Assembly (NCBI GenBank): GCA_027039485.1
Contig: JALWDZ010000016.1
Span: 1-62,517 of the forward strand
Direction of reading: 5' to 3'
DNA length: 62,517 bases
Source of the DNA: Candidatus Shapirobacteria bacterium
GTDB taxonomy: Bacteria > Patescibacteriota > Microgenomatia > UBA12405 > UBA6130
Below the pieces are notes generated by a model. It had not been told where the DNA came from. It did not search any database and saw nothing but the letters and a program-made list of their open reading frames with translations. The position numbers were made by a program, and so were the translations under genes. Every line of letters starts with the position of its first letter. Positions within the stretch are counted from its first letter, which is position 1. Below are positions 25,091 through 53,029 of the stretch, one piece after another.

Positions 25091-25519
25091 GTGGCAATGA
25101 AAGATAAAAAGTTTTATTACCAAGTTGGCGGGGTTGCCTTGGCGGTTATTTTGGGCGTTTTGAGCGGTTGGGGATTAACCCAGTTGCGTTCCCAAAAAAC
25201 AACTAGTTCCAAAAGTAAGGGGGCAATAGTCGCTCAGCCTAGTGGCGGAGAGGTAAAAATTGGCCAAACTTACGGGCAAAAAGATGGCGCTTTCAAAGAC
25301 ACGGCAGTGGGAGTATTAGCTAAAAATGATGAGAAAAACAGCGAAGGCACTCACAAGCTTTTGCGCGATGGCGGCCCTTCGCAAACGGTTTATCTTACTT
25401 CATCGGTTTTAGATTTGGACCAGTTTTTGGGGCATAAAATCCAAGTGTGGGGCGAGACATTTTCCTCCCGAAAGGTAGCTTGGCTAATGGATGTTGGCCG
25501 GATAAAGGTTTTGCAATGA
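25091..25519 (+). CDS. Hypothetical membrane-anchored protein, first gene of the ftsEX operon
   Basis: SD GAAAGGAGGTG. 142 aa with an N-terminal TM. The stop overlaps the ftsE start. Confidence 0.5.
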   Translation: MAMKDKKFYYQVGGVALAVILGVLSGWGLTQLRSQKTTSSKSKGAIVAQPSGGEVKIGQTYGQKDGAFKDTAVGVLAKNDEKNSEGTHKLLRDGGPSQTVYLTSSVLDLDQFLGHKIQVWGETFSSRKVAWLMDVGRIKVLQ

Positions 25520-26193
25520 AAATTCAGTTTCAGAAGGTAAGCAAGCAGTTTGGCCCCGTAGCGGCAGTCAAAAATATGAGCTTTGCAATAGAGGAGGGAG
25601 AATTTGTTTTTCTAACCGGGCCATCGGGAGCAGGCAAAACGACTGTTTTGCGCCTAATTAGCGGTTATTACTTTCCTGACGAAGGCGAAGTGACTCTAGA
25701 TGGCAAGCGGCTTACGGCGATGAAAAAGAAGGAGCTTTTGCAATGGCGACAACGGGTTGGAATGGTTTTTCAGGAATTTAAATTGATTCCCCAGATGACG
25801 GTTGGTGAAAATGTGGCCGTGGCTTTGGCATTGCGCCGGGTGCCCAAAAAGGAGCGCGCCGACCAATTGATGAAAGTTTTGGCGACGGTAGGTTTAGAAG
25901 AAAAGAAAGACGCTTTCCCGGCCCAGCTTTCGGGAGGAGAATTACAGCGGGTTTGCTTGGCCCGGGCTTTGGCCATGGAACCGGAAATTTTATTGGCCGA
26001 TGAGCCGACCGGCAATCTCGATCCGGCTTCAAGCTGGAAATTAATGGACTTGTTGCAAAAAATTAATAAGAAGGGGCGGACGGTCATTATGGCTACCCAC
26101 AATGTTGATATTGTGAATTCTCTCCGGGGGCGGGTTATTGCCCTGAAGGAGGGGCGGTTAGTAAGTGATAAAAAGAAAGGAAAATATCAATGA
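25516..26193 (+). CDS. ftsE: Cell-division ABC ATPase FtsE
   Basis: Walker [10 protein letters not shown], signature LSGGELQR, Walker B LLADEP. About 225 aa from ATG 25516. Confidence 0.9.
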
Positions 26194-27059
26194 GTTTTTG
26201 GCAGCGCGTTTGGCATCACCTGCGACGGGGGCCATTCCAAAGTTTGGCGGCAATTCTGGCGACTTTTAGCGTTTTCTTGCTAGCCACGAGCTTTCTTTTT
26301 TTGCTTTTGACTCTTTTAGGGGCAGTGCGTTATTTTGAATCCCGACCTGAATTAAGCGCCTTTCTTAAAGATGATGTTAATCAGCAGCGGGTGGAAGAGT
26401 TGGTAAAAGAATTGCGGCAAACACCGGGAGTTAAAGATGTCCATTATGTTTCCAAAGAAGAAGCGTTGCAAATTTACCGCCGGCTTAATAAAGATAACCC
26501 CCTTCTCTTAGAGATGGTTACCGCCGATGTTCTGCCGGCTTCGATTGAGGTTTCGGCTAATTCGCCTAATAGCCTCCAGCTGGTTGCCGATAAATTGCAA
26601 AAAAATAAAGACCTTTTTGAAGATATTTATTTCCCTAAGCAAGTTATTGCTTTTCTTTCTCACCTGGTCACTACTTTAGAGTGGCTAGGCGGGGGTTTGC
26701 TAATTTTCTTAGGTTTTTATGCCTTAATTACGATTATGGTGGTAGTGGGGATGAAAATTGCCCTCTTTAGCGAAGAAATTGAAATCTTGCGCCTTCTGGG
26801 AGCTAGCGGCCGCTATATTGCCGGGCCCTTTCTTCTCGAGGGTGTTATCTATAATTTGTTTGGGTTTTTTCTGGGTAGCGGCGGTTTAGTGGCTGTGCTT
26901 GCCTTAACGCGAAGGCAACTGATAACTGTTTTCCAGCAACTTTCCTTGCCTCTGCCCGATTGGCGTTGGCTGGCGGCTAGCTTGCTGCTGGAATTCCTAT
27001 TTGCCATTTTTGTTGGCTTCTTGGCTAGCCTTTTGGCAGTCCGCCGCTATCTTAAATGA
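26190..27059 (+). CDS. ftsX: Cell-division permease-like protein FtsX
   Basis: Four-TM topology with a large first extracytoplasmic loop. ATGA coupling to ftsE. Confidence 0.85.
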   Translation: MSFWQRVWHHLRRGPFQSLAAILATFSVFLLATSFLFLLLTLLGAVRYFESRPELSAFLKDDVNQQRVEELVKELRQTPGVKDVHYVSKEEALQIYRRLNKDNPLLLEMVTADVLPASIEVSANSPNSLQLVADKLQKNKDLFEDIYFPKQVIAFLSHLVTTLEWLGGGLLIFLGFYALITIMVVVGMKIALFSEEIEILRLLGASGRYIAGPFLLEGVIYNLFGFFLGSGGLVAVLALTRRQLITVFQQLSLPLPDWRWLAASLLLEFLFAIFVGFLASLLAVRRYLK

Positions 27060-28240
27060 AAAAGCTTGTCTTTTTTCTATTAGTTTCCTTTTTTTGGTTG
27101 TGGCCTAATTTGGCGAGGGCAGCTGACGACCAACAGCAAATCAAGGATTTGACCCAGAAAATAGAAAAGTGGGAACAGCTCATCCAGGAGAGCCGCCACC
27201 AGCAAGAAAGCCTTCAGACGCAACTTCACTATCTGGACAACCAAATTTACCTTACTCAATTGAAGGTTAAGCGGACTCAAGCGGAAATGGAGCTTTTGCG
27301 CGAACAAATAAAAGAATTGGGAGGGAAAATTAACAGCCTGGACACTACTCTCAATCAGATTACCGCTGTTTTTTTGACCCGGGTGGCATCGGATTATAAG
27401 TTGCGCCGGATTAGCCCTCTCGACCTTTTCTTTGCCAATTTGGATTTTGGCCGATTTTATACTTTACAAAAGTACTACCAGGTGTTGCAAAATAATGACC
27501 GGCGGTTAATGTTTAATTTGGAGGAAACTCGCCTGAACTACGATCTCCAAAAAAAGGAAAAGAAAAAGAAACAAGCGGAATTGGCCCGGCTAGAAAAGCA
27601 GTTGGCTAGCCAGCAAAAATTATTGGCCGAACGGAAAGCGAGCAAAGAGCGGCTTTTGGAAGTAACCCGTAATGATGAGCGGCGTTACCAACAACTTTTA
27701 GCGGCCGCCCAAAGGCAGTTGAATGCTTTGCGGTCGTTTGCCGAGCATCGCGGCGGGGGGCTTCTGCCACCCCAACCTAGCCCCGATGGCTGGTATTATA
27801 ACCAGCGGGATGAGCGTTGGGGCAACCAATTTATTGGCGCTTCCGATATGCGCATTTGGGAGGTAGGCTGTTTAGTAACCAGCGTAGCCATGGTTTTTAC
27901 TAAATACGGCAACCACCGTACCCCGGCCGATATTGCCGGTAATGTGGCCTACTTTTTTTCTGACACCGCCTATATGCTTTGGCCTTGGCCGAGCCCGCCC
28001 GGCTATCACCTAGTGAGCCGGGGAGCTGATTTTGCGTTTATTGACCAAGAACTGGCCGCTGGCCGGCCGGTCATTGCCCATCTAAATATTGGCACCGCCG
28101 ATGGCCATTTTGTGGTCCTTAAGAAAAAAGAAGGCAATGATTATATTATGAATGATCCTTGGTACGGGCCCAATTTGAAATTAAGCGACCACTACAGCCG
28201 CTATCAAATAACTTCTGCCAGCGCCTACTTGCCTAATTAA
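27056..28240 (+). CDS. Secreted coiled-coil protein with a C-terminal papain-like (C39-like) cysteine peptidase domain; PcsB/EnvC-analogous position
   Basis: Signal peptide, about 230 aa of heptad-rich sequence, then a candidate Cys box (WEVGCLVTSVAMVF) and His box (ADGHFVVLKKKEGNDYIMNDPW). ATGA coupling to ftsX. Confidence 0.6.
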   Translation: MKKLVFFLLVSFFWLWPNLARAADDQQQIKDLTQKIEKWEQLIQESRHQQESLQTQLHYLDNQIYLTQLKVKRTQAEMELLREQIKELGGKINSLDTTLNQITAVFLTRVASDYKLRRISPLDLFFANLDFGRFYTLQKYYQVLQNNDRRLMFNLEETRLNYDLQKKEKKKKQAELARLEKQLASQQKLLAERKASKERLLEVTRNDERRYQQLLAAAQRQLNALRSFAEHRGGGLLPPQPSPDGWYYNQRDERWGNQFIGASDMRIWEVGCLVTSVAMVFTKYGNHRTPADIAGNVAYFFSDTAYMLWPWPSPPGYHLVSRGADFAFIDQELAAGRPVIAHLNIGTADGHFVVLKKKEGNDYIMNDPWYGPNLKLSDHYSRYQITSASAYLPN

Positions 28241-28277: not shown

Positions 28278-29375
28278 ATGCCCAGGAAGGTTGTTTTTTG
28301 GCTTTCTGTTTTCTTAATTTTCGGGCGGGCGGCGGCAGCGGCCGACGAGGTTGTCCTCTATAAATTTTCTTCTTACCAAAGCTCTGGCGATTGGGTTGAA
28401 ATAAAAAACCAAAGTAATCAGGTGCAGGATTTAGCTGGTTATCGGGTAGAAGACAGTGCTGGGCATGGCCGGGAAGGCTTTTCTTGCTTGTTGGAGCCTG
28501 GAGGCATCTATTATCTTTCTTTAAACAATTATTTGAACCGTGATGGTGATGCGGTAGTTCTTAAAAAAGATGGCCAAACAATTGATTGTGTTTCTTATGG
28601 TGACAGCCTTTGCCCTAACCAGCAAGAGGCTGATTTGCCCAGCCCGGCGGCTAGCCAGGCGGCTATTTTGGCCGATAGTGGTTGGCAGCTGACCGGCGAC
28701 CTAAGCGTGGTTGATAACAGTAGTTGTCTTACTCCGACACCAACACCAGCACCGACTAATTTGCCAACTTTAACCCCAACTGCTTCGCCTTCCCCGTCGC
28801 TTTCGCCAACGCCGACGTCAGCCCCGAAAGCTGTTTGCCATCTCTTGGGGGCTAAAGATGAAACCGGCCAGGCAATAAACAACGCCAAAATTTATATTGA
28901 TGGTCAATATATTCACCATTACTTGCCAGAGACATTGAATTTTTGCCCCGACTGTTATTGTGATCCTGATCATCAAGTGGCTTGCTCTCTAGGTAGCCAC
29001 CAGATAAAAATTCACCATGATGGTTATCAAGATTGGCAGTGGACCGGTAATTTCGCCGCCGGCACTGATTGCCAGCAACAGCCGATTCTGCGGCACTTGA
29101 TTCCTCCCTCGCCGACATCTTCTCCCTCTTCCTCGCCGGTGCCTTCATTGACACCCCTGCCATTGGTTCTAACTGATGCTAGTGACGAAGCCGTTTTAGG
29201 TTCTGAAAGTGGAGAGGTAAAAGGCGCCCAAGTTTCATCGCCATCTATCCACCAACGAAAAGTAGGCGCCAGTTTAGCCCTACCATTGCTTTTTATTGGT
29301 GCTGGGGTTACGATGATAGGGAGTTATTTTATTTTGACCAAGAAGGAAAAAGAAGAAATTGAGGAAGATTGGTAA
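28278..29375 (+). CDS. Secreted lamin-tail-domain (LTD) protein with a PT-rich linker, a Cys-rich region and a C-terminal TM anchor
   Basis: Signal peptide; LTD-like GDWVEIKNQSNQVQDLAGYRVED; the linker TPTPTPAPTNLPTLTPTASPSPSLSPTPT; and a C-terminal TM followed by an acidic tail. Confidence 0.6.
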   Translation: MPRKVVFWLSVFLIFGRAAAAADEVVLYKFSSYQSSGDWVEIKNQSNQVQDLAGYRVEDSAGHGREGFSCLLEPGGIYYLSLNNYLNRDGDAVVLKKDGQTIDCVSYGDSLCPNQQEADLPSPAASQAAILADSGWQLTGDLSVVDNSSCLTPTPTPAPTNLPTLTPTASPSPSLSPTPTSAPKAVCHLLGAKDETGQAINNAKIYIDGQYIHHYLPETLNFCPDCYCDPDHQVACSLGSHQIKIHHDGYQDWQWTGNFAAGTDCQQQPILRHLIPPSPTSSPSSSPVPSLTPLPLVLTDASDEAVLGSESGEVKGAQVSSPSIHQRKVGASLALPLLFIGAGVTMIGSYFILTKKEKEEIEEDW

Positions 29376-29757
29376 ATACGCACCGGTGCTTCTTTGGATG
29401 CTTTTTATCTTTTATCTTTCTTCGCGGCAGCGGATTACTGTTAGCCAAAGTTATTGGCTTAGTTTTCTCTTTTTTAAAACGCTTCATGTTATCGAATATG
29501 GGGTTCTGTTTCTGCTTTGGGATTTAGCCCTTTTCCCTCGCCGCCGCCGCTGGCGTGAGGCCTTTCTCTTGGCTGTCTTTTATGGCGCCTTAGATGAATT
29601 TCATCAACATTTTGTTCCCACCCGCCATGGTTGCCTAAGAGATGTTTTTATCGATACTTTAGGGATTTTTATTGCTTATTACTGGCTGCGTTTTTGGTGG
29701 GAAGAACGATTGAAAGTCTTGACAAGGCAAAGTCTTGACAAAGTGAAAAAACAGTAG
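29359..29757 (+). CDS. VanZ-like membrane protein
   Basis: Small polytopic ORF with DEFHQHFVPTRHGCLRDVFIDTLG, typical of the VanZ-like family. The start is uncertain (TTG 29359, GTG 29386 or ATG 29398). Confidence 0.65.
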   Translation: MRKIGKYAPVLLWMLFIFYLSSRQRITVSQSYWLSFLFFKTLHVIEYGVLFLLWDLALFPRRRRWREAFLLAVFYGALDEFHQHFVPTRHGCLRDVFIDTLGIFIAYYWLRFWWEERLKVLTRQSLDKVKKQ

Positions 29758-29808
29758 TAATTTTAAGATATGGGAGATGAAATAAGAAGAACGATAACTT
29801 TTTTTATG

Positions 29809-29830
29809 AGCGCCCTTGAGGCGCTTTTTT
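29809..29830 (+). terminator. Intrinsic terminator after the vanZ-like gene
   Basis: AGCGCC-CTTGA-GGCGCT stem-loop followed by T6. Confidence 0.7.
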
Positions 29831-29861: not shown

Positions 29862-30446
29862 ATGAAGCGGATATTATTTCAACTCTTTCTCTTGATAAGC
29901 GTTGCTGCCGTTGCAGTCGGAGTAACCCGGGCTTATTTTAGCGACCAGGGTGCCTCTACCAATAACACTTTCGCTGCCGGGACACTAGATTTGAAACTTT
30001 CTGATGATAATGAAACGGTAGCAGATAGCATTACCGAGAGCATTGGAGGCAGTAATATGGCTCCTGGAGGGACACCGGTAACAGGAATTATAAAGTTTCG
30101 CAATAGTGGAACTATAGTAGGCCATGATCTGGCTATAGCTGTAACTAATACTTGCTCGGCGACTGGTATGGCCAAGTATCTGAAATTGACAAAATTAATT
30201 TATGGTTCTAATAATCTCTTAACGACTGCTCTTCAGGATGTAAATAGAAATGGTATTTTAGACTTGGACGACTGGGCTTCCTTGAATGATGGAGCTGGAA
30301 TTGAAGGGTTGACTTTAGCAGATTTAGATGTTGATCACGCATTAACTATTGGTGTCCAGTTAGACACAAGTACGCCAAACACTTTCCAGGGGCAGCATTG
30401 TGTAGTCACGATTAGGGGGACTTTAACACAAGCAACGCCGCAATAA
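29862..30446 (+). CDS. TasA/CalY (camelysin, M73-like) family secreted protein with a SipW-class signal peptide
   Basis: The N-terminus …VGVTRAYFSDQGASTNNTFAAGTLDL carries the characteristic AxFSD…NTFxAGTLDL signature. 194 aa. SD GGGGGTGAG. Confidence 0.75.
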   Translation: MKRILFQLFLLISVAAVAVGVTRAYFSDQGASTNNTFAAGTLDLKLSDDNETVADSITESIGGSNMAPGGTPVTGIIKFRNSGTIVGHDLAIAVTNTCSATGMAKYLKLTKLIYGSNNLLTTALQDVNRNGILDLDDWASLNDGAGIEGLTLADLDVDHALTIGVQLDTSTPNTFQGQHCVVTIRGTLTQATPQ

Positions 30447-30472
30447 TAATTGCCGCTGTTTAAGTAGTCCCC

Positions 30473-32914
30473 ATGGCGGACTACTTAGCCGGTATGGGGC
30501 AATTATTACAAATAGTACAGATGCTTTTAGGGCTCCACCTTTGGGTGGTAATAAGCGGCTCGATGGCGCCGGCAATTAAACCGGGGTCTCTGGTGGTAGC
30601 CGTTCCCTGCCAGCAATATCAAATTGGTGAGATTGTTTCTTACCGGAATCCTCGGGGAGAGATTGTTACCCACCGTTTGATACAGGAAGAAAAGGGAAAA
30701 TTTATTACTCGGGGCGATGCCAATAATGTTGCCGATGCGCCAATTGCTAAACAATCAGTTTTGGGTAAGGCAGTTTTTGTTATTCCGATAGTTGGCTATT
30801 GGTTTTTTAATTTCCACCGCCTTATTTTTTCTTTTCCGCTTATTTTTGGAGGTTTTCTTCTTCTTTTCATTCTTTGGGTTTTGTGGGAAAAAGTTCGCTC
30901 TCGCCATATTTTAGGGAAATTGCTGAATGGTATAGCGTTATTAGCTCTGATGGGAAGTGGTTTGGCGCTAAATATTAGTGCTTCGCAGAGTCTTTTTAGC
31001 GACCAAGGGCAGAGTAGCCAAAACACTTTTACTGCCGGCGATTGGGTGCGGCCGACTTCGGCGATTGATGGGGCCGAAAATGACCAGGGCGATTCAATCA
31101 TGGATGTTGCCAACCAGCCAGTCCACATCCTTTATCATGCCGATGACTCCAGCAGCGGCGTCAACCGGGTAGAATTATGGTTTTCTTATAATGATGGGGC
31201 GTGGCAATATTTTGGTTTGGGCCAAAACGGAGAATTCGTTTTTTCCTTTCCCCACGGCGATGGGGTTTACCGCTTTTTGACGGTGGCGATTGATAATGCC
31301 GGTTGGCGAGAAGATAAAGACGGGAACGGCGTTGATGATAACCGTGATTCGGTGGAATTAGAAAATGTCGCCTCATTTTTGGCAGCTACTGGCGATTTAT
31401 TCCAGCTGCAATACGACAGCCAGCCGCCAACGGTAGCTTGGGTTGTGCCGACACCGGGTGATAATCTTTGGCAAGGCCAACCAGCTCTGGCTAACGGTGA
31501 TTTCCAGCAGGGAATGGAGGGATGGACAGCCGGCGGCAATGGCGATCACCACATTGTTGCTAGCGGGGAAGATTTGGACGGCAATCCAATTGTTGCTGAT
31601 CAAGGTGGCCAGATGTTCGAGTTGGGCTTTCGGAGCCAAGATAAAACCGGCCAAGACTTTCTCCGGCGCTTGATCGAGTTACCGACTAAAGTAGTACCTT
31701 ATTTGCAATTTAGCTACCGGATGTTGAGCGAGGATGTTGTGGATTATGATTGGCTGGCGGTGAAAATAAGCAGCCCCAATCAGGGGGAGAAAACTTTATT
31801 GAAGACGGGCAGCGAGGAAAACGACGACCTCTATAATGGTGACAGTTGGGCTGGCTGGCAAGGGGATTCCGGCTGGCGGCGTTTGACAGCCAACCTTCAA
31901 GCTTTTCAAGGCCAGGAGGTGAACTTAGATTTCTGCCTCCGGAGCCACCAAAACCCAACTGGGCCGGGGCGGAGCTGGGCTTATCTTAGCAATATTGAGC
32001 TTCATTTCTTAGATCCCCGCCTAACAACATCAGCCGAACTGAGCCTGGATGTCCATGACGCGTCGGGGTCGGGGGTGGACCAGGCAACTTACCAGGTAAA
32101 TGACGGCAGTGACGAAGATTTTGAGGGAACGCCCGTTACCCTTGCTAGCGGCGAGGCGACTGTTTCAGCCCAGGCTGTTGATTTAGCCGGCAACAATAGC
32201 GCGCCAACTAAATTAGAGGCCAAAGTGATGGCCGACGTTGTTCTCAATCGCTTTTCCGCTGCCCCGAGCAGTGGCGACGAGTGGGTGGAGCTTTATAACA
32301 ACAGCGACAGCGATCAAGATGTGGCCGGCTGGCAGATTTGCGACGATGGTGGCCACTGCGTTGCCTTAACGGCCGGCAATGCGGTGGGCGGCTCAACAAT
32401 AATTGAAAGCCATACCAGCCAGAAGTTCGAAGATGATTTTTACCTTAATAATAACGGCGACACGATTTATTTGAAGGACGATAGTGGCGTTGTCCAAGAC
32501 AAATTTAGCTATGGCGATCTTAGCAACCAGCATGATCAAATTTGGTCGCGTAATCCCGATGGCTTAGGAAGCTGGCAACTAACGCCGGGAAGCTTAACCG
32601 CTAATATTACTAGCCGTTACAACACGACCGGCAAAATATTATTGACTGTTTACAATCTCCCGGCTGATTATGGCCAGGGTGACCTTCTGGAATACGAAAT
32701 CACTTACACCGATAACCAGGGCTTAGAAAAAGGCATCGCCGGGACGATTCTGCCCGAGGAAGTGGCGGATGGTAAAGCAGACCGGGAGTTTTATTTGGGC
32801 ACTTGTTCAACTGGCGGCACTTGCGTGACTAATGTAATTCCTGCTCATCAAGTAAAATTAACCTTACGCCAGGGAACAACAGTTATTATTAACCAAAAAG
32901 CTTTCGCAATCTAA
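30473..32914 (+). CDS. Fusion protein: SipW/Sec11-type (S26B) signal peptidase I, TM segments, an internal SipW-class signature, and a large exodomain with an LTD
   Basis: Ser box VISGSMAPAI, His box IVTHRLI, TRGDANN box; TM segments at about aa 100-165; ASQSLFSDQGQSSQNTFTAGDW (nt 30977-31045); LTD-like DEWVELYNNSDSDQDVAGWQICDD near the C-terminus. 813 aa. Confidence 0.7.
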   Translation: MADYLAGMGQLLQIVQMLLGLHLWVVISGSMAPAIKPGSLVVAVPCQQYQIGEIVSYRNPRGEIVTHRLIQEEKGKFITRGDANNVADAPIAKQSVLGKAVFVIPIVGYWFFNFHRLIFSFPLIFGGFLLLFILWVLWEKVRSRHILGKLLNGIALLALMGSGLALNISASQSLFSDQGQSSQNTFTAGDWVRPTSAIDGAENDQGDSIMDVANQPVHILYHADDSSSGVNRVELWFSYNDGAWQYFGLGQNGEFVFSFPHGDGVYRFLTVAIDNAGWREDKDGNGVDDNRDSVELENVASFLAATGDLFQLQYDSQPPTVAWVVPTPGDNLWQGQPALANGDFQQGMEGWTAGGNGDHHIVASGEDLDGNPIVADQGGQMFELGFRSQDKTGQDFLRRLIELPTKVVPYLQFSYRMLSEDVVDYDWLAVKISSPNQGEKTLLKTGSEENDDLYNGDSWAGWQGDSGWRRLTANLQAFQGQEVNLDFCLRSHQNPTGPGRSWAYLSNIELHFLDPRLTTSAELSLDVHDASGSGVDQATYQVNDGSDEDFEGTPVTLASGEATVSAQAVDLAGNNSAPTKLEAKVMADVVLNRFSAAPSSGDEWVELYNNSDSDQDVAGWQICDDGGHCVALTAGNAVGGSTIIESHTSQKFEDDFYLNNNGDTIYLKDDSGVVQDKFSYGDLSNQHDQIWSRNPDGLGSWQLTPGSLTANITSRYNTTGKILLTVYNLPADYGQGDLLEYEITYTDNQGLEKGIAGTILPEEVADGKADREFYLGTCSTGGTCVTNVIPAHQVKLTLRQGTTVIINQKAFAI

Positions 32915-34068
32915 TGAAAAAACTATTATTTTTAGGCTGGTTGTTTTTCTTTTGGCCGGCAACTGTTTGGGCGGCTGGCTTAGAAGTGGTGGCTCCCCAG
33001 GGGCCAATTTTTTCTGCCCAAGAAATTTGGTTTCCTGGCCATTCGGTGGGCGGGCAGGGAGAAAAATGGGTGGAATTAAAAAATGACGAAAATGTTTCTA
33101 GTGGCGTTGTGGTTCAGGTGGGTGATAATAATTTTTCGACAGCCCAAGCTAACGGCTTAGCTGAGAAAATTTATTTTTCTATTTACAAAATTGAAAATGG
33201 CACTAGCAGCTGTCTTTATGGTTGCGGCGCTAATGTCCACACTTTAGCTGATTTAGCCCAAACTGGCGCTGAGTTACCGGCTAACCAATTTAGCTTGGCT
33301 CCTGGTGGCCAGGGCAAATTATATTTTTCGGCCACTATGGACTCTTTGGCGGGCAACGAGTACCAGGGCAAAGCAGCAACCTTTACTTTACTGTTTGGCT
33401 CTTTGCCAGTAGCCACGCCGACGCCGACCCCAATCTTGACGCCTACCCCAACTCCAACACCAATTGTAACTTCTACCCCCACACCGACGCCAGCGACGAC
33501 GGCTACATCTTCGCCAACAACCACCGCTAATGGGGGCGGGAAAGCTGGAACAACTACTTGTTCAGATACTGCTCCGCCCGCGCCGCGCAACTTAACTGCT
33601 GTCCCAGCTGGCTATGGCCAGGTGTTGCTCAGTTGGCAGTCGGGAGGCGGCTCGGTGGACCACTATGCCATTGTTTATGGTTTAGCTAGCCACCACTATC
33701 TTTATGGGAATCTTGATGTTGGCAAAGCTGAGCGGTATTTGGTTTCGGGCTTAGCGCTTGGTAAACGTTATTATTTTGCCGTTCGGGCGGCCCACGGTTG
33801 CGCCTGGAGTGGCGATTCCAACGAGGCTACAGTGGCGGCTGGCGGGGCAGCAGCTGGACCAGCTCCCAACCAGCCGGTGCCGGGTTTCCAAGTATTGGGG
33901 AAGAAAACTCCGGAGGGTAAAATTAGTGGGGGAGAAAAACAAGAGGCGGGCTCTACCCTAGGTGCAAAGCGAAAGAAATACAACCTTCCCTGGTTGAAAT
34001 TAAGTTTAGGCCTAGGAGGCACTGGCTTGGCCTTCTCCCTCTTCTGGCTTTGGCGCCGCCGGCGCTAG
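32914..34068 (+). CDS. Secreted protein with a PT linker, an FN3 domain and a C-terminal TM/poly-Arg anchor
   Basis: Signal peptide; the AGNEYQGKAATFTLLFGS strand resembles the NTFQGQHCVVTIRGTL strand of the TasA-like neighbour; TPTPTP linker; FN3-like PRNLTAVPAGYGQVLLSWQ…YYFAVRA; the C-terminus is GLAFSLFWLWRRRR. ATGA coupling. Confidence 0.55.
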   Translation: MKKLLFLGWLFFFWPATVWAAGLEVVAPQGPIFSAQEIWFPGHSVGGQGEKWVELKNDENVSSGVVVQVGDNNFSTAQANGLAEKIYFSIYKIENGTSSCLYGCGANVHTLADLAQTGAELPANQFSLAPGGQGKLYFSATMDSLAGNEYQGKAATFTLLFGSLPVATPTPTPILTPTPTPTPIVTSTPTPTPATTATSSPTTTANGGGKAGTTTCSDTAPPAPRNLTAVPAGYGQVLLSWQSGGGSVDHYAIVYGLASHHYLYGNLDVGKAERYLVSGLALGKRYYFAVRAAHGCAWSGDSNEATVAAGGAAAGPAPNQPVPGFQVLGKKTPEGKISGGEKQEAGSTLGAKRKKYNLPWLKLSLGLGGTGLAFSLFWLWRRRR

Positions 34069-34102
34069 ATTTTCTTCGCTGAGCTTCTTATAATGGGATG
34101 TA

Positions 34103-34933
34103 ATGATCGGAAAACTAAAGGATTGGTTTTTGCCAACAGCTAATAATGGCTGGCGGGCAAAGTTGCTCCATCCCGAGGCGCTAACGGGTTTGGTAATTAT
34201 TATTCTTTTGGGACAATTGGTTTTTCGCCTTTTCCCTTTAACGCATCCTGGGGTTTTAGGCTATTCTTCCGACATTACCCCAGAAAAAATTGTTGCCCTA
34301 ACTAATCGGGTGCGCCAGCAAATGGGCCTGCCAACTTTGCGGGTGAATAAGCTGCTTAATGAGGCTGCCCGGCGCAAAGCGGCAGATATGTTTGCTTTTA
34401 ATTATTGGGCTCATGTTTCTCCATCGGGGCGGACTCCCTGGTCATTTTTTCAGGAAGTAGGTTACCGTTATACTGTTGCCGGCGAGAATTTAGCTAAAGA
34501 TTTTACTGACGCTGATAGCGTCGTCCAGGCTTGGATGGCCTCGCCAACTCACCGCGACAACATCCTTGATGCTCGCTTTCGAGATATTGGCGTGGCGGTG
34601 GTTAGGGGAGAGCTAAATGGGGTAAAAACAACATTAATTGTCCAGCTCTTTGGCGCTCCGATTGGAGCTGAAAATGAAAAAGTCGCCGCTGCGGTGCCGC
34701 CGATGCCTAAGATTCCTCAGGCGGTAGCTGGCGCCAAAATCAATCCTTTCCGGGTAGCAAAAGCAGGAGCAATATTTTTGATTGGTATCTTTCTGGGGGT
34801 ATTAGCTGCCGACAGTTGGTTTGCCCATCGCTATCACCTGTACCGCATGACTGGCCGCAACGCTGCCCATGCTGGTTTGCTTTTAGCTTTGTTGTTATTG
34901 GTTTTATTGGCTCCCCAGGGGCTGATTTATTAG
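34103..34933 (+). CDS. CAP/SCP (PR-1-like) domain membrane-anchored protein
   Basis: N-terminal TM; the CAP-like motifs NEAARRKAADMF…NYWAHVSP…GENLA…VQAWMASPTHRDNIL; and a C-terminal hydrophobic region. Confidence 0.7.
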   Translation: MIGKLKDWFLPTANNGWRAKLLHPEALTGLVIIILLGQLVFRLFPLTHPGVLGYSSDITPEKIVALTNRVRQQMGLPTLRVNKLLNEAARRKAADMFAFNYWAHVSPSGRTPWSFFQEVGYRYTVAGENLAKDFTDADSVVQAWMASPTHRDNILDARFRDIGVAVVRGELNGVKTTLIVQLFGAPIGAENEKVAAAVPPMPKIPQAVAGAKINPFRVAKAGAIFLIGIFLGVLAADSWFAHRYHLYRMTGRNAAHAGLLLALLLLVLLAPQGLIY

Positions 34934-34941
34934 GAGAAGCA

Positions 34942-35205
34942 ATGCACCGAGAAATTAAGAAATATCCTCTTGACTTTGCTATCCTTTTTGCTAGCTTTTT
35001 GTTGGTTTTGGTCTTCTTCCTTTATTTTCGCTTTTCTCTTTCTGTGGAAAAACGGCTGCTTGTTAGTTTGGTGAGTTTTTATTTGCTTTGGGGAATAGGG
35101 CATCATTGGTATCACCGTGACTTATCTTTGCGGGTTTTAGGAGAATATCTCCTTTTTGCGTTTTTGGCTCTTCTTTTGGGCTGGTCAGTCTTTCGCTTTG
35201 GTTAA
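34942..35205 (+). CDS. Small hypothetical membrane protein (87 aa)
   Basis: ATG 34942 is preceded by AGGAG. Three hydrophobic segments. The longer track ORF (from 34816) overlaps the CAP gene. Confidence 0.45.
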   Translation: MHREIKKYPLDFAILFASFLLVLVFFLYFRFSLSVEKRLLVSLVSFYLLWGIGHHWYHRDLSLRVLGEYLLFAFLALLLGWSVFRFG

Positions 35206-37301: not shown

Positions 37302-37319
37302 TGTTATACTTGCTTGACG

Positions 37320-38096
37320 ATGGCTACTGATTCTGATGTTGAAGTTTTAACTTTAAACCAAATAAAAGCCGGCCGGGCAATAGCAAGAGCTTTTCCTAGG
37401 AAGAAAAATTTAGAGCACTCTTTATGTTTGTTAGCTGCGGCAGGCACGGCGCTTAATTTTATTTTTCAAAGGCGCCTTATCAACGAAACAGAGGCCGACG
37501 GAGGACTTTCTTTAGAAAAAATATACCAGGTTCTCTTGCCGCTTAATGGCCGGTTTGCTAATTCTAAGCTGCCGCGTGGTTTTCTTTTGACCGATGCCCT
37601 AGGCAATATGTACCACCATGTGGTAATAGCTTTGGCCAATGCTTTAGGTTTGGAAGGCATTTCGGTAGGCAATGTTACTAGCTTAAGTTCTTTAAAGCCA
37701 TATATCCAGCCGGGAAAAAAGGCTGTGATAGTTTCTTTGAGAAATGATTTTATTTGGGAACAAACTTTAAAAATGCAGCTGCCTAAAACATTGAATTGGC
37801 GAAAGGGAAGGCATATAGTTGCTATTTTAGGGTTTAGCGGGAACAAGGTAACAATTGCCGACTCTTTTAATTGGCGGCAGCCTGAAAAGAGAAGAGGGGT
37901 GGTGGTGCAGTTACCGCTAAACGTAGCAGAATCTTATTTAAAAGATGAGTCTAATCGCGCTAATCAGGCTATTATTTTTAGCCGCGACATTTTAGGAAAC
38001 TTGCCCTTTAGGCAGAATAATATTTTTATTCCCCCGGAAGTTATTGCCCACCTCCAAAAAACCCTTAATTTAGAGAGGTTTGAAAGGAAAGTTTAG
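37320..38096 (+). CDS. Hypothetical protein, possibly a papain-like (C39-like) fold
   Basis: 258 aa with no signal peptide. EHSLCLLAAAGTALNF and GRHIVAILGFSGNKVTIADSF loosely resemble the Cys/His boxes of the ftsX-linked peptidase. TGtTATACT (37302-37310) lies 9 nt before the ATG. Confidence 0.35.
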   Translation: MATDSDVEVLTLNQIKAGRAIARAFPRKKNLEHSLCLLAAAGTALNFIFQRRLINETEADGGLSLEKIYQVLLPLNGRFANSKLPRGFLLTDALGNMYHHVVIALANALGLEGISVGNVTSLSSLKPYIQPGKKAVIVSLRNDFIWEQTLKMQLPKTLNWRKGRHIVAILGFSGNKVTIADSFNWRQPEKRRGVVVQLPLNVAESYLKDESNRANQAIIFSRDILGNLPFRQNNIFIPPEVIAHLQKTLNLERFERKV

Positions 38097-49223: not shown

Positions 49224-50819
49224 ATGGTTACGGGTTCTTTTCCGTTCATGCTAGAATTTTTTATGAAATGGCGGCGACTGTTTGAGATGGATGTTATTAG
49301 AATTATTAGGAAAAATAAGTGGTTAATTTTGCTTTTGGTGGTTTGGTTAGGCGGATTGGGGGTACGGGTATATCGGCAAGGAGATTTGCTGGGTTTTTAT
49401 TATGACCAGGGGCGGGATGCCCTTCAGGTGGCTAAAATCCTTGCTGCTAAAAATTTTCCGGCAATTGGGCCGACAACTGGCCTAGCAGGTATTTTTCTTG
49501 GCCCTTTTTGGTTCTATTTTTTGGCCCCCTTATACTTTATCGGCCGGGGCGATCCAGCCGTGGCGGCGGCTTTGGTGGGGGTAGTTGACAGTTTAACAAT
49601 ACTTTTGCTTTATGGGCTGGGGAAAAAATTTGTCAATGAAAAGGTGGGGTTGATAGCAGCTTTTCTTTGGGCCTTTTCTTATTGGCTCATTCGTTCGGCG
49701 CGGTGGTTTTCGAATCCGTCTCCTTTACCCTTTTTTACCGTCCTTTTGTTTTGGAGCTTGGGAGAATGGCTCTTGCGGCAAAGAGCAAAATGGTTTTTGG
49801 CTGTTGCCCTTTGGTTGGCAATTAGCCTACAATTGGAAGCGGCGAGCGCTATTTTTTATTTCCCGGCCATTTTTCTCTTAGCTCTTATTTTCCGGCATCG
49901 GGTAAAATTCGGTTCTGCGAACAAGTATCTTTGGGGCGGAGTTGCCGTTTTCTTTTTTTCCCTTTTGCCGCAAGCTGCTTTTGAAATAAAAAATAAGTTT
50001 TTAATGACCCGGAATTTTTGGGGTTTTTTGACTGGTAAAGTAAATACCGAAAGCGGCCGCAGTTGGGCTTGGCCAACATTTTCTATCATAAAGGAGCGTT
50101 TGATTTGGTATCACCATGTTTTCTTTGCCCAATTTGACCCGAATCTCCGTTGGCCTTTTTGGCTGGTTTTACTTTTTTGGCTTTTCTTTTTGTTGGTGTT
50201 GCTGCGGTCCCGCAATAACTTTCTTCGCCTGATTTTTCTTTTTGTTTTAACGCCGCTGTTTTTTCTGCTTTTCTTTGTTGGCAATTATGGCCATCTTTAT
50301 GATTATTATTTGACTGGCTTTTTGCCGGGATTTATTTTCCTTCTGGCTTATGTTTTAGCCCAGCTGCCGCTGGCAATTTTGTTTATCATCCTTTTGTATT
50401 TTTCCTGGCAAAATGGGCTCTTAACTCGCAATTATTTAATTGCCGGTGTTGACGGGCCTACCCACATTACTCTTGGCAACCAAAAGCAAATTATCCGTTG
50501 GGTTTGCCAAGATGCTGGCCGGCAAAGCTTTAATGTTGACGTTTATGTGCCGCCGGTAGTTCCTTACGCTTGGGACTATCTTTGGCGGTGGTATGGCTGC
50601 CAAAAATTGCATTGTTGTCCGGCCAAAAAGCACGTTTCCCGGCTTTATACCATTTGGGAAGTGGACCCTCCTCACCCAGAAAGGTTAAAGGCTTGGTTGG
50701 AAAGACAAGCGGGAATTGGTAAAATCGAAAAGCAGGTAAGATTGGGAGGCATTGGTGGCGAAAGACGAAAACGCTATGAACAAAAAAGTTTATCTATCGG
50801 TAGTCATCCCTTGTTATAA
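49224..50819 (+). CDS. ArnT/PMT-like (GT-C) membrane glycosyltransferase, paralog of 45517..46974
   Basis: Polytopic. YDQGRDALQVA…IGPTTG…FLGPFWFYFLAPLY is a shared motif. The start is uncertain; several in-frame ATGs lie between 49224 and 49290. Confidence 0.6.
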   Translation: MVTGSFPFMLEFFMKWRRLFEMDVIRIIRKNKWLILLLVVWLGGLGVRVYRQGDLLGFYYDQGRDALQVAKILAAKNFPAIGPTTGLAGIFLGPFWFYFLAPLYFIGRGDPAVAAALVGVVDSLTILLLYGLGKKFVNEKVGLIAAFLWAFSYWLIRSARWFSNPSPLPFFTVLLFWSLGEWLLRQRAKWFLAVALWLAISLQLEAASAIFYFPAIFLLALIFRHRVKFGSANKYLWGGVAVFFFSLLPQAAFEIKNKFLMTRNFWGFLTGKVNTESGRSWAWPTFSIIKERLIWYHHVFFAQFDPNLRWPFWLVLLFWLFFLLVLLRSRNNFLRLIFLFVLTPLFFLLFFVGNYGHLYDYYLTGFLPGFIFLLAYVLAQLPLAILFIILLYFSWQNGLLTRNYLIAGVDGPTHITLGNQKQIIRWVCQDAGRQSFNVDVYVPPVVPYAWDYLWRWYGCQKLHCCPAKKHVSRLYTIWEVDPPHPERLKAWLERQAGIGKIEKQVRLGGIGGERRKRYEQKSLSIGSHPLL

Positions 50820-51537
50820 CGAGGAGGCAAATTTGCGCCGGGGCGTCCTTGAGGAGGTTTGGCAATTTCTTAAAAAACAAAAGTTTTCTTGGGAAGTTTT
50901 GGTCTCTGATGACGGCTCCTCGGATAAAAGCCTATCTTTAGCCCAAAAATTTGCTCGTCATCATCCTGGTTTTAAAGTTTTAGCCAATGAACACGGCGGC
51001 AAGCCATGGGCTGTTTGGCAGGGGATTAGGGCCGCTTCTGGGGAAATAATTCTTTTCACCGACATGGACCAATCGACGCCTCTCAAAGAAATAAAAAAAC
51101 TGTTGCCCTGGTTTAAAAGGGGTTTTGATATTGTCATTGGGTCGCGGGGGAAAACTCGGAAGGATGCTCCTTGGTTGCGCAAACTCATGGCTTTTGTCTT
51201 TCTAACTGGCCGGCGATTGATACTTTTGCGGGATATTAAGGATACCCAGTGTGGCTTCAAGGCCTTGCGGCGGTTGGTGGCTCAGCGATTATTCCCCAAG
51301 CTGCAATTTTTCCGCCGAAAACAGGAAGGGATAAAAGGCTGGCGAGTTTCTGCTTTTGATGTCGAACTTTTATTTTTGGCTAAGAAAGCTGGTTATCGTA
51401 TAAAGGAAGTAAAAGTAGCCTGGCAAGACCGTGATATTACCCAAGGGAAAGGAAAAAATTTTCTCCGCGAGTCAAAAGAGATGCTTTCGGAAATTTTGCG
51501 CATTAAATGGAATAATTGGCTGGGGCGTTATGGCTAA
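50776..51537 (+). CDS. GT2 glycosyltransferase (polyprenol-phosphate sugar synthase-like)
   Basis: LSVVIPCYNEEANL, VSDDGSSDKS, FTDMDQSTP. The start is taken as ATG 50776. Confidence 0.8.
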   Translation: MNKKVYLSVVIPCYNEEANLRRGVLEEVWQFLKKQKFSWEVLVSDDGSSDKSLSLAQKFARHHPGFKVLANEHGGKPWAVWQGIRAASGEIILFTDMDQSTPLKEIKKLLPWFKRGFDIVIGSRGKTRKDAPWLRKLMAFVFLTGRRLILLRDIKDTQCGFKALRRLVAQRLFPKLQFFRRKQEGIKGWRVSAFDVELLFLAKKAGYRIKEVKVAWQDRDITQGKGKNFLRESKEMLSEILRIKWNNWLGRYG

Positions 51538-53029
51538 AAAGAAAAAAATTTTTCTCCTTCTTTTGGCAGCTGGCCTATTTCTTTTTAGTCGGCTTTACAA
51601 CCTAACGGCGTTCCCTATCTTTTGTGACGAGGCTATTTATATTCGCTGGGCTCAGGTGCTTAAAAGCATCCATTCGCTTTGGTGGGTTCCTCTTTCAGAC
51701 GGCAAACAGCCCCTTTTTATGTGGTTGGCGGCGATTACCTTAAGCATTTTTTCTGATCCATTATTTGCCGGTCGGTTGGTCTCTGTTCTTGCTGGACTTG
51801 GAGAAGCCTGGCTGGTTTGGCGATTAGGCAGATTACTACATCTCCGTCGCTCCTGGCTAGCTTATTTTATTTATCTTCTTCTCCCATTTTTCCTCTTTTT
51901 CAACCGCCTGGCTTTAGTTGATAGCCTGCTTTCCTTTTGGATTACCCTTTCCTTTTACCTGGCCTTTCTCTTAGCAGAAAAGCGGAAGAGTTGGTTGGCT
52001 ATTCTTTTGGGAATTAGTTTAGGCGCCGCCTGGCTAACTAAAAGCCCGGGGGAAATTTTTATTTTTGTTGTTCCTCTGGCAGGAACGTTGTGGCTGCTTC
52101 TAGGACAGGAGATAGGGGAAATGCGCCGCCGTTCGTTTTGGTTGCTCGAGGGTCTATTTGCCTTATCGTCACTAATTGCTTTTAGCCTTTACAACCTTCT
52201 CCGCTTAGCGCCAGTTTTTTATATGATCAGCCGCCGTAACCGGGATTATCTATGGGGTTGGCAATATCTCCGCCAGCATCCCTTTGGCCCCCTTTTGGCT
52301 CATTTGGGCGATCTCGGTCGTTATTATCTGCATTATTTGACCTGGCCAGGAGCGCTTTTTGCCCTTTTAGGCTTTTTGCTTTTGTTAAAAAAGAAAAATT
52401 GGCCGGTTTTGGCAGTTTTATTGCTTTGGTGGCTGCCAGTTATTCCCATGTTGGCGGTGGCAAAAGTTTTTACTGCCCGTTATGTGCTTTTTTCGGCTTT
52501 GCCTTTGCTATTGTCAATAGGAATAGCTGTTGATTGGCTTTGGCGTTGGCAATGGGGGAAAGGCTTGATTTTAGTGGCTGCTTTACCAGCATTAGTTTTT
52601 ATGAAAAATTTGTGGCAAGTAAATCCCCATTTATCTCTTCCGCGAGATGAATATCGTGGTTACCTGGAAGCCTGGACGGCCGGAGAAGGCATCCGGCCAA
52701 TAGCCCGCTATTTGCAAAATTTACCGCCCCAAACAAAAGCAGTAGTTGGCACCGAGGGCTTTTTTGGCACCTTACCTAATGGGTTGCAAATTTATTTTGA
52801 CCAATCGCCCAATATTACCGTTATTGGGGTCGGAGTGGATATCGATAAGGTTTCCTCCTCGTTGCTGAATGCCAAGAAGGCCGGTAACCGCGTTTTTCTG
52901 GTGGCCAATGCTAGCCGTTTCCATCTCCAAAACCCCCAGAAAAAGGGACTGGTGCTGATAAAAAGTTTCCCTAAACCGGGTGGAGACAAGTTATTATTTT
53001 GGGAATTGAAAAATGTTCAAAAAATGTGA
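51530..53029 (+). CDS. ArnT/PMT_2-like (GT-C) membrane glycosyltransferase
   Basis: FCDEAIYIRWAQ first-loop motif. About 12 TM segments and a C-terminal soluble domain. The start ATG 51530 overlaps the GT2 stop. Confidence 0.65.
   Translation: MAKKKKIFLLLLAAGLFLFSRLYNLTAFPIFCDEAIYIRWAQVLKSIHSLWWVPLSDGKQPLFMWLAAITLSIFSDPLFAGRLVSVLAGLGEAWLVWRLGRLLHLRRSWLAYFIYLLLPFFLFFNRLALVDSLLSFWITLSFYLAFLLAEKRKSWLAILLGISLGAAWLTKSPGEIFIFVVPLAGTLWLLLGQEIGEMRRRSFWLLEGLFALSSLIAFSLYNLLRLAPVFYMISRRNRDYLWGWQYLRQHPFGPLLAHLGDLGRYYLHYLTWPGALFALLGFLLLLKKKNWPVLAVLLLWWLPVIPMLAVAKVFTARYVLFSALPLLLSIGIAVDWLWRWQWGKGLILVAALPALVFMKNLWQVNPHLSLPRDEYRGYLEAWTAGEGIRPIARYLQNLPPQTKAVVGTEGFFGTLPNGLQIYFDQSPNITVIGVGVDIDKVSSSLLNAKKAGNRVFLVANASRFHLQNPQKKGLVLIKSFPKPGGDKLLFWELKNVQKM

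Follow-up and report, generated by a model that had tools for sequence, protein, structure and literature searches.

A SipW-type signal peptidase fused in frame to a predicted secreted protein with a probable SipW-class signal of its own in a TasA-like locus of a Candidatus Shapirobacteria bacterium

The closest known system to the locus described here is the tapA-sipW-tasA operon of Bacillus subtilis. SipW cleaves both TasA and TapA, and a phenylalanine at P2' is typical of its substrates (PMC10269814). TasA polymerises through an N-terminal strand, β0 (A28-S41), which completes the sheet of the next subunit and places F29 in a conserved pocket; mature TapA starts with AFHDI, is without the TasA body, and its residues 44-57 suffice for nucleation (PMC9674648, PMC10151520). 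The start, polarity and cell attachment of TasA fibres are still open in Bacillus, and surface appendages and host attachment are poorly understood in bacteria of the candidate phyla radiation (CPR/Patescibacteria). To our knowledge, no characterised signal peptidase forms one chain with its own substrate, and neither a fused SipW nor a TasA system of CPR bacteria was described in the literature we searched. Here we describe a three-gene unit in a window of 62,517 nucleotides (nt) from Candidatus Shapirobacteria bacterium (GCA_027039485.1, contig JALWDZ010000016.1, forward strand), in which the middle gene joins a SipW-type signal peptidase to a large exoprotein with what appears to be a SipW-class signal of its own. 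We refer to a TasA-like gene, the fused gene and an anchored-protein gene as genes 1, 2 and 3.

Gene 2 (30473..32914; all features of the window given below lie on the + strand) is one open reading frame (ORF) of 813 amino acids (aa), delimited by its frame and by hidden Markov models (HMMs), and the in-frame fusion itself is certain. Its peptidase module (aa 1-145, 30473..30907) comprises an N-terminal anchor (aa 9-27, from hydropathy), the Ser box VISGSMAP (aa 26-33, nt 30548-30571), the His box VTHRLI (aa 65-70, nt 30665-30682), the box RGDANNVAD (aa 80-88, nt 30710-30736) and a second transmembrane (TM) helix seen by hydropathy (aa 116-138, nt 30818-30886). Residues 24-110 pass the S26B model TIGR02228 (sigpep_I_arch) with 73.9 bits against a cut-off of 51.85, and the module is a predicted archaeal/endoplasmic reticulum (ER)-type signal peptidase I. 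Enzymes of this class (Sec11/SipW) use Ser and His as catalytic residues, have no Lys general base and keep a conserved Asp in a GDxN box, the pattern found here as SGS30M, TH67R and GD82ANNVAD88. The Bacillus SipW equivalog NF046067 aligns aa 18-142 with model positions 35-170 of 189, at 54.4 bits far under its cut-off of 190; the enzyme is best called 'SipW-type' only by its fold, its C-terminal TM helix and its gene context, not SipW sensu stricto. No second SipW-type gene was found anywhere in the window.

A profile of aa 1-240 of gene 2, searched against 1.84 billion representative proteins, gave 32,785 matches at E ≤ 0.001. The fused-family counts that follow were taken among the best 150 representatives of these matches, as clusters at 50% identity with members drawn from NCBI, JGI, ENA and Logan; HMM scans and catalytic-residue conservation cover 81 fused proteins, hydropathy and charge 92, and cleavage-site columns and the sequence after the final 'AG' of the signature 100. 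TIGR02228 matched all of the 81, and each of them matched both SipW and archaeal-type peptidase models. M31, H67, R68, G81, D82 and D88 are invariant among them, and S28, G29 and S30 are at least 90% conserved.

The peptidase is followed within the same chain by what appears to be a second signal peptide (junction and signal, 30887..30991, from hydropathy). A predicted cytoplasmic loop, EKVRSRHILGK (aa 139-149), separates the second TM helix from an internal h-region, LLNGIALLALMGSGLAL (aa 150-166, also from hydropathy), and this is followed by the c-region NISASQS (aa 167-173), with a predicted cut between S173 and L174 (nt 30991/30992; SQS↓LFSD, the arrow marking the cut). At its end the segment reads LFSDQGQSSQNTFTAG, which copies the SipW-cognate N-terminus of gene 1; the second signature as a whole, ASQSLFSDQGQSSQNTFTAGDW, spans aa 170-191 (nt 30980-31045). 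In the best BLASTP match between the two proteins, aa 8-40 of gene 1 and aa 157-189 of gene 2 are identical at 15 of 33 positions (E 5e-05). Across four full-length homologues, F175, D177, N184, F186, A188, G189 and W191 are invariant down to 36% identity; because of this invariance and the BLASTP E value, the internal motif is beyond chance. K140 and L134 are conserved as well, showing that the junction region is kept as protein. Beyond the cut, aa 174-191 (30992..31045) form a donor-strand-like motif, LFSDQGQSSQNTFTAGDW, the likely equivalent of TasA β0 (A28-S41) and of the mature TapA N-terminus; in our mapping from the published structures (PMC10151520, PMC9674648), L174-A188 correspond to the whole of β0, F175 and D177 included.

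The residues around the internal site look like those of a substrate. In the 100 fused proteins, position -3 is T in 63, S in 33, A in 3 and V in 1, and position -1 is A in 62, S in 33, G in 3 and C in 2, so that both are small in 100 of 100. Position +1 is Y, F or L, and F occupies +2 in 79 proteins, D +4 in 85 and N +11 in 92, while the h-region columns are free to vary in this set, whose clusters lie below 50% identity. The site thus combines the classic -3/-1 rule with the TasA-type F at P2'. A stretch with a net positive charge, +2.8 on average, precedes the h-region in 90% of the 92 fused proteins, and the predicted cut lies a median of 158 residues past the catalytic serine. At a whole-protein E ≤ 0.01, which is looser than the curated cut-off, 23 of the 81 scanned relatives match TIGR04088, the model of SipW-cognate signals. 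Because the -3 and -1 residues are small throughout, cleavage at the internal site, and with it self-release of the exodomain, is likely. An earlier note on this stretch, made from its sequence, had described a SipW-dependent N-terminus of TasA/CalY type in the first ORF and an ER/archaeal-type peptidase core opening the second, and both descriptions hold (the scores of gene 1 are given below); its second signature is present too, with two amendments, in that it begins at 30980 and not at 30977, 3 nt too early, and that it scores below the TIGR04088 cut-off.

The fused architecture is widespread in CPR bacteria and not rare. Full-length fused homologues occur in three other assemblies, with 81% identity in a Candidatus Microgenomates metagenome-assembled genome (MAG), 60% in a Candidatus Shapirobacteria MAG and 32-36% in a JGI metagenome; in each of them the gene just upstream encodes a TasA-like protein of about 195 aa. 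About 100 of the best 150 representatives have the same succession of peptidase, TM helix, positive loop, h-region and [TS]x[AS]↓[YF]FSD..N.F.AG, the fuller consensus after the h-region being [TS]x[AS][YF]FSDxExSxxNxFxAG, and 95 of the 150 are at least 300 aa long. The author of the earlier note was not aware of a characterised fused form, and none turned up in the literature we searched, but the fused form itself turns out to be common. The few fused proteins that carry a name, one of them from Candidatus Gottesmanbacteria, are annotated just as 'signal peptidase (I)'. A TasA-like gene lies immediately upstream of the fused gene in all six fused loci examined. We also surveyed 80 SipW loci in species-representative genomes, found with a 4-sequence alignment; this survey returned mostly ordinary unfused Firmicutes SipW genes and was used as a contrast set. 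In it, fusions occur only in CPR lineages (Microgenomates, Shapirobacteria twice and Andersenbacteria), whereas the Firmicutes and Actinobacteria SipW genes encode 160-220 aa and are unfused.

Related loci in which the two parts are separate genes show where the join lies. Locus L084 reads VanZ, TasA-like gene, sipW (207 aa), an ATGA overlap, a 796-aa lamin-tail domain (LTD) protein and a gene 3 homologue; its standalone SipW aligns with window residues 20-141 and its exoprotein with residues 219-813 (E 9e-81). In L085, the end of sipW overlaps by ATGA a gene for a 677-aa LTD protein starting MIKKFFLTTWLAFFAFTLLVDPTGASFKDKEQSKFSVSAGEWTRPES, followed by a gene 3 homologue and a CAP gene. The L085 exoprotein has at its N-terminus the same signal plus motif as the internal segment of gene 2, and everything from the c-region of this signal to the C-terminus aligns with window residues 164-798 (31% identity, E 4e-76). 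In the split form the K-rich tail of SipW is followed by a stop codon and an M-K-K n-region ('...LRKKKE', stop, 'MIKKFF...'), and the fused form reads '...LLDKKKSSKSRIIF...'. The junctions are collinear, which places the join where the K/R-rich cytoplasmic tail of SipW meets the n-region of the signal peptide of its substrate. Directly after sipW, a large gene with a SipW-class signal is also found in L008 (Paceibacterota), L006 (Saccharibacteria) and L022 (Moraniibacteria), and the L008 protein shares 58% identity with the part of the fused protein P0009 that follows the signal.

Fused and split forms do not separate into two branches. The nearest relative of split L084 is the fused P0136 (707 bits) and that of split L085 the fused P0033 (about 615 bits), whereas L084 and L085 both score only about 250 bits against the window's clade. 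As the two states are interleaved, fusion or fission occurred more than once. The same interleaving suggests that fused and split genes give the same mature products, and it favours cleavage at the internal site. Together, HMM matches, conservation and above all these unfused orthologous modules bear out the proposal of the earlier note, a peptidase fused in frame to an exoprotein with its own SipW-class signature in a TasA-like locus. The 813-aa protein is best read as a natural fusion of a SipW-type peptidase with the gene that normally follows it, which encodes a large secreted LTD protein with a SipW-class signal peptide.

A different peptidase fusion was seen in the survey. In Pseudobutyrivibrio sp. 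YE44 (L063:3959-5254), a protein that matches Peptidase_S26 joins a SipW-type peptidase to a sortase domain at the C-terminus (Pfam Sortase, 33.7 bits against a cut-off of 26.6). The join follows the C-terminal TM helix of the peptidase, a K-rich loop and one further TM helix, and so sits at the cytoplasmic tail, as it does in the window. A gene of an uncultured Lachnospiraceae bacterium (L066:3905-5248) looks similar by eye. These two would be a second kind of pilus-enzyme fusion.

Beyond the internal motif lie 622 residues (aa 192-813, 31046..32914), the roughly 620 aa with an LTD that the earlier note had counted, and they contain no TasA-like jelly roll. We distinguish an Ig-like domain (about aa 195-290), a beta-rich middle domain (about aa 340-515), an OmpL47-type domain (aa 519-585, nt 32027-32227; 45.2 bits), the LTD (PF00932; aa 587-681, nt 32231-32515; 49.3 bits, cut-off 34.3) and a conserved C-terminal domain (aa 700-813). 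The remaining pieces gave only sub-threshold Pfam matches, to Big_7 and InhA-like MAM; the exodomain had no Peptidase_M73 match in the Pfam scan, and the NCBIfam scan of gene 2 gave no match to the TapA model TIGR04087. Secondary structure is all-beta in a low-confidence AlphaFold 2 (AF2) model. After 'AG' the chain goes on with DWVRPTS and then the unrelated Ig-like and LTD domains. Among the 100 fused proteins, 39 continue with xWxxPTPT and only 3 with an LDL/TLDL-type jelly-roll strand; because of this, the fused substrates are probably best described as typically strand-only proteins, TapA-like in logic. Domain scans of the 81 fused relatives found an LTD in 41, Peptidase_M73 in only 2 and TIGR04087 in 1 (E 3.7e-20). 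The exodomain itself is not TasA-like, as it carries only the donor-strand segment. The relative with the TapA body is probably P0143 (379 aa, from a Logan assembly). This protein is presumably the match in question, being the best local BLAST match to a TapA sequence. If its body is TapA, P0143 would be a literal SipW-TapA fusion.

Gene 1 (29862..30446) encodes a TasA/camelysin-like protein of 194 aa, the putative major fibre subunit. Its N-terminus, MKRILFQLFLLISVAAVAVGVTRAYFSDQGASTNNTFAAGTLDL, has a hydrophobic segment followed by TRAYFSDQGASTNNTFAAGTLDL. The SipW-cognate signal (aa 1-24, nt 29862-29933) has its predicted cut at TRA↓YF (TRA↓YFSD), and a β0-like donor strand, YFSDQGASTNNTFAAG (nt 29934-29981), leads into the jelly-roll body (aa 41-194), of which the TLDL that runs on after 'AG' is the first strand. 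The protein is above the gathering score of Pfam Peptidase_M73 (PF12389; 28.2 bits versus 22.5) and the cut-off of TIGR04088 (cognate_SipW; 22.8 bits over its full length and 26.8 bits when only the N-terminus is scanned, versus 19). Among PDB sequences, TasA (5of1/8aur) ranks first for the gene 1 family, weakly (E 0.5). A role as a camelysin-type metalloprotease was rejected, since the protein lacks an HExxH motif and members of its family are nowadays regarded as fibre subunits.

Gene 3 (32914..34068, 384 aa), whose start overlaps the stop of gene 2 (TAATG), encodes a putative membrane-anchored subunit that could only accept a strand. An ordinary signal peptide (aa 1-20, VWA↓AG) precedes a domain that resembles a TasA-like jelly roll without β0 (aa 21-165, nt 32974-33408, from hhalign), a PT linker (aa 166-215), an FN3 domain (aa 223-305, nt 33580-33828; fn3 31.9 bits) and a C-terminal TM helix (aa 357-379) followed by RRRR. 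Compared by hhalign with 29 SipW-cognate TasA-like proteins, the family of the N-domain (9 sequences) reached 96.7-97.5% probability (E 3.7e-10 and 3.1e-11), in an alignment that begins past the signal and β0 (FSD..N) columns; an earlier, shallow comparison with the gene 1 family (3-4 sequences each; 2.4% probability) is superseded by these deeper alignments. The AF2 model of the N-domain has a predicted local distance difference test (pLDDT) score of 72-91. A Foldseek search of the gene 3 model against the PDB gave top matches that are all FN3 proteins and thus uninformative on the N-domain, and the family profile likewise matched only FN3 proteins among PDB sequences. The coupling, PT linker, FN3, TM helix and RRRR had already been pointed out for this gene; its treatment as an accessory is to be corrected in view of what is probably a TasA-like body without the strand. 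Gene 3 homologues adjoin fused or split sipW and exoprotein genes in L002, L003, L014, L084, L085 and L086, and the three-gene set is conserved in at least seven loci.

These parts can be arranged into the model that we favour. TM1 would run from inside to outside, leaving the catalytic domain outside, and TM2 back inside; the K/R-rich cytoplasmic loop would be the fusion point, where the SipW C-terminus and the signal n-region are both cytoplasmic, and the internal h-region would cross outwards again and put the cleavage site and the 640-aa exodomain outside. The peptidase domain of the same or of an adjacent molecule would then cut after S173 (SQS↓LFSD) and release an exodomain whose N-terminus, LFSDQGQSSQNTFTAG, would be the counterpart of the TasA/TapA β0 donor strand. 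More speculatively, the TapA-like exodomain may put this strand into the first gene 1 subunit, thereby priming and capping a donor-strand-exchange fibre and placing its Ig-like and LTD domains at the distal end; gene 1, with strand and jelly roll, would polymerise; and gene 3 would accept the last free strand and tie the fibre to the cell through its PT/FN3 stalk and membrane anchor. Since the three products are complementary, the gene 2 exodomain having the strand with Ig-like, OmpL47-type and LTD domains in place of a TasA-like body, gene 1 both strand and body, and gene 3 the body without the strand but with a PT/FN3 stalk and membrane anchor, the simplest model is one of initiator or tip, polymer and anchored terminator. 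We regard this division of roles as plausible, while stopping a little short of expecting it. The fusion would ensure that each initiator is made with, and beside, one copy of the peptidase on which every SipW-class subunit depends. The full proposal, a signal peptidase made as one chain with its own substrate that frees itself and launches a primer starting and capping a TasA-type pilus, which a strand-less anchored subunit terminates, is offered tentatively.

An assembly or sequencing artefact, in which a lost stop or a frameshift joined two genes, was considered because the separate genes of related genomes overlap by only 4 nt (ATGA), such that a single indel could join them. The same ORF is, however, continuous in the three other independent assemblies at 81, 60 and 32-36% identity, about 100 clusters at 50% identity from NCBI, JGI, ENA and Logan keep the fusion, and K140 and L134 show a junction conserved as protein. 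For the family, four independent assemblies with the same neighbours and some 100 clusters rule out the artefact, a result reached without inspecting reads, and for the window protein we hold it to be extremely improbable. A rather unlikely but more substantial alternative accepts the fusion and takes the internal hydrophobic segment as a permanent, uncleaved third membrane helix, with the peptidase processing only gene 1 and similar proteins and the exodomain serving as a tethered adhesin or fibre-nucleation platform. The h-region is long enough for a TM helix (17-21 residues), an association with the membrane or the cell is reported for Bacillus TapA (PMC10151520), the window motif is under the TIGR04088 cut-off, and the case for cleavage is indirect. 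Against this reading, all 100 fused proteins have a small residue at both -3 and -1 while the neighbouring columns vary freely, and the segment is orthologous to true N-terminal signal peptides of the split loci. Frequent switching between fused and split states is hard to square with different mature products, and a dedicated membrane anchor is already supplied by gene 3. A reading we consider quite improbable is that the locus encodes three surface proteins, each SipW-dependent and acting independently of the others (an S-layer-associated adhesin, a small TasA-like protein and an anchored FN3 protein) that share no donor-strand fibre, the motif being a recognition element only. FSD..N.F.AG does belong by definition to the SipW-cognate signal model TIGR04088, LTD, Ig-like and OmpL47-type domains are generic surface modules, and no evidence of CPR fibres appeared in the literature searched. 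Yet the same residues are a structural donor strand in Bacillus; the set of strand only, strand plus body and body only, kept as a triplet in at least seven loci, would be unexpected; and gene 3 has an ordinary signal peptide and is without exactly β0.

Several results weigh against a self-cleaving peptidase that primes a fibre. Scanned alone, the internal segment matches TIGR04088 below the cut-off (14.1 bits versus 19, E 0.04; no other family matched). Exactly two hydrophobic segments lie between the GDAN box and the cut in only 50 of the 92 fused proteins, by a crude hydropathy count that is inflated by the hydrophobic, conserved IPxLGY strand region. The AF2 model of the 813-aa protein, from a 4-sequence alignment, is poor (pLDDT 46.9), too poor for fold search or docking; it has helices at 2-19, 121-140 and 144-172, with 173-194 disordered and the motif as coil at low confidence (pLDDT 25-28). 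The gene 3 N-domain has no Pfam or NCBIfam match, and none to Peptidase_M73 even at E 10; its likeness to TasA comes from a single profile-profile comparison on alignments made in this analysis. Cleavage, whether in cis or in trans, and any fibre are predictions from sequence, and fibre polarity and the tip and anchor roles are extrapolated from Bacillus TasA/TapA.

The neighbours of the unit, all three kinds of which (LTD, VanZ and CAP) had been named in the earlier note, are confirmed by Pfam. A VanZ-family membrane protein (29359..29757; VanZ 52.9 bits, vanZ_1 68.6 bits) is a conserved upstream neighbour, also found in L003 and L084, and a CAP/YkwD-domain protein with N- and C-terminal hydrophobic segments (34103..34933; CAP 66.4 bits) a conserved downstream one (L002, L003, L014, L085 and L086). 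In a consensus scan, terminator-like hairpins with T-runs lie after the VanZ gene and upstream of the unit (29808..29826) and at the end of gene 3 (34049..34069; 9 pairs, the strongest + strand site); the evidence for terminators is weak, with site counts not above those of shuffled sequence, and the two strongest + strand sites sit exactly at the unit's borders. Further upstream, a second LTD protein (28278-29375) combines an ordinary signal peptide with PT/PS-rich linkers and a TM anchor at its C-terminus; the stop of its gene overlaps the VanZ start, and a gene of similar size is upstream in L003. A small conserved gene (34816-35205; 87 aa in relatives, with a weak DUF5656 match) always follows the CAP gene, its relatives being L002:5246-5509, L003:6667-6930 and L085:4370-4633.

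Other parts of the window contain observations that stand by themselves. The gene at 27056-28240 encodes an N-terminal coiled coil with weak EnvC/PcsB-like matches and a C-terminal Peptidase_C39_2 domain, and lies directly after, and is translationally coupled to, an ftsE/ftsX-like ABC pair (25447-27059); its product resembles a hydrolase or activator for the cell wall that is associated with FtsEX, in which the C39-like catalytic domain would be unusual. Between trmD and tsaD lies a 260-aa ORF with no Pfam match (37314-38096), and ORFs similar in size and position only are found between the same genes in L002 and L003. In the region 49224-57863, genes of about 500-580 aa overlap one another in a row, and their coding strand is strongly enriched in T (AT skew -0.2 to -0.27). 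Two PMT_2 glycosyltransferase paralogues and a Polysacc_synt_3 flippase are among them, as are two large ORFs that match nothing in Pfam (53013-54764 and 56142-57863); the region is probably a surface-glycan cluster.

If the proposed fibre is real, the locus would encode a full three-part pilus system, free of chaperone and sortase and specific to ultra-small CPR bacteria, possibly for host attachment, and the annotation 'signal peptidase I' would be hiding a widespread CPR fibre or adhesin system. The fusion would also offer a simple natural system for studying how a substrate is presented to an ER-type signal peptidase, cis versus trans cleavage included. Its apparent split of fibre start, polymer and anchor over three genes makes a model of fibre start and anchoring directly testable.

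Compared with tapA-sipW-tasA, the locus shares a dedicated ER/archaeal-type Ser/His signal peptidase encoded next to its substrates, and substrates in which the signal is followed by xF[SN]D...F.[AS]G, the donor strand β0 once cleaved; in both, one substrate is a jelly-roll polymer subunit, in the window a predicted one, and another is a strand on a non-TasA body, needed in Bacillus only for fibre start. The differences are that in the window peptidase and initiator-like substrate are one polypeptide, that the initiator body (620 aa; Ig-like, OmpL47-type and LTD) has no TapA homology, that gene 3, with its strand-less TasA-like body, FN3 stalk and anchor, has no counterpart in the Bacillus operon, and that the peptidase is far under the SipW equivalog cut-off (54 versus 190 bits) and the host belongs to the CPR. 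In the sipW-bsaA-bsaB-bsaC operon of Clostridium perfringens, sipW likewise precedes genes for TasA-like matrix proteins and for a large secreted accessory protein thought to be SipW-dependent, and in the model proposed there subunits assemble while tethered by their signal peptides and are then released by SipW (PMC11580942). Its genes are separate, however, BsaA is isopeptide-locked, the accessory protein has a vWA domain and no anchored strand-less subunit has been described. The archaeal bundling pili AbpA/AbpB of Pyrobaculum calidifontis also pair a TasA-like donor-strand filament with a TapA-like partner, for which a role in supplying the first strand and in bearing adhesin domains at the distal end has been proposed; there is no dedicated peptidase gene near that operon (PMC9245690), and no fusion. 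An analogy to chaperone-usher pili has been drawn for TasA fibres (PMC10151520), and these too have starting, repeating and terminating or anchoring subunits told apart by donor strand, groove or both, but they are built from unrelated proteins with the opposite arrangement of strand and groove at the tip, need a chaperone and an outer-membrane usher, and have no signal-peptidase fusion. The unfused CPR modules (L085, L084, L008, L006 and L022) are also close, with orthologous genes in the same order, the same exoprotein signal and motif, a K-rich sipW tail, and gene 3 and CAP genes following; they differ in having two genes with an ATGA overlap where the window has one ORF.

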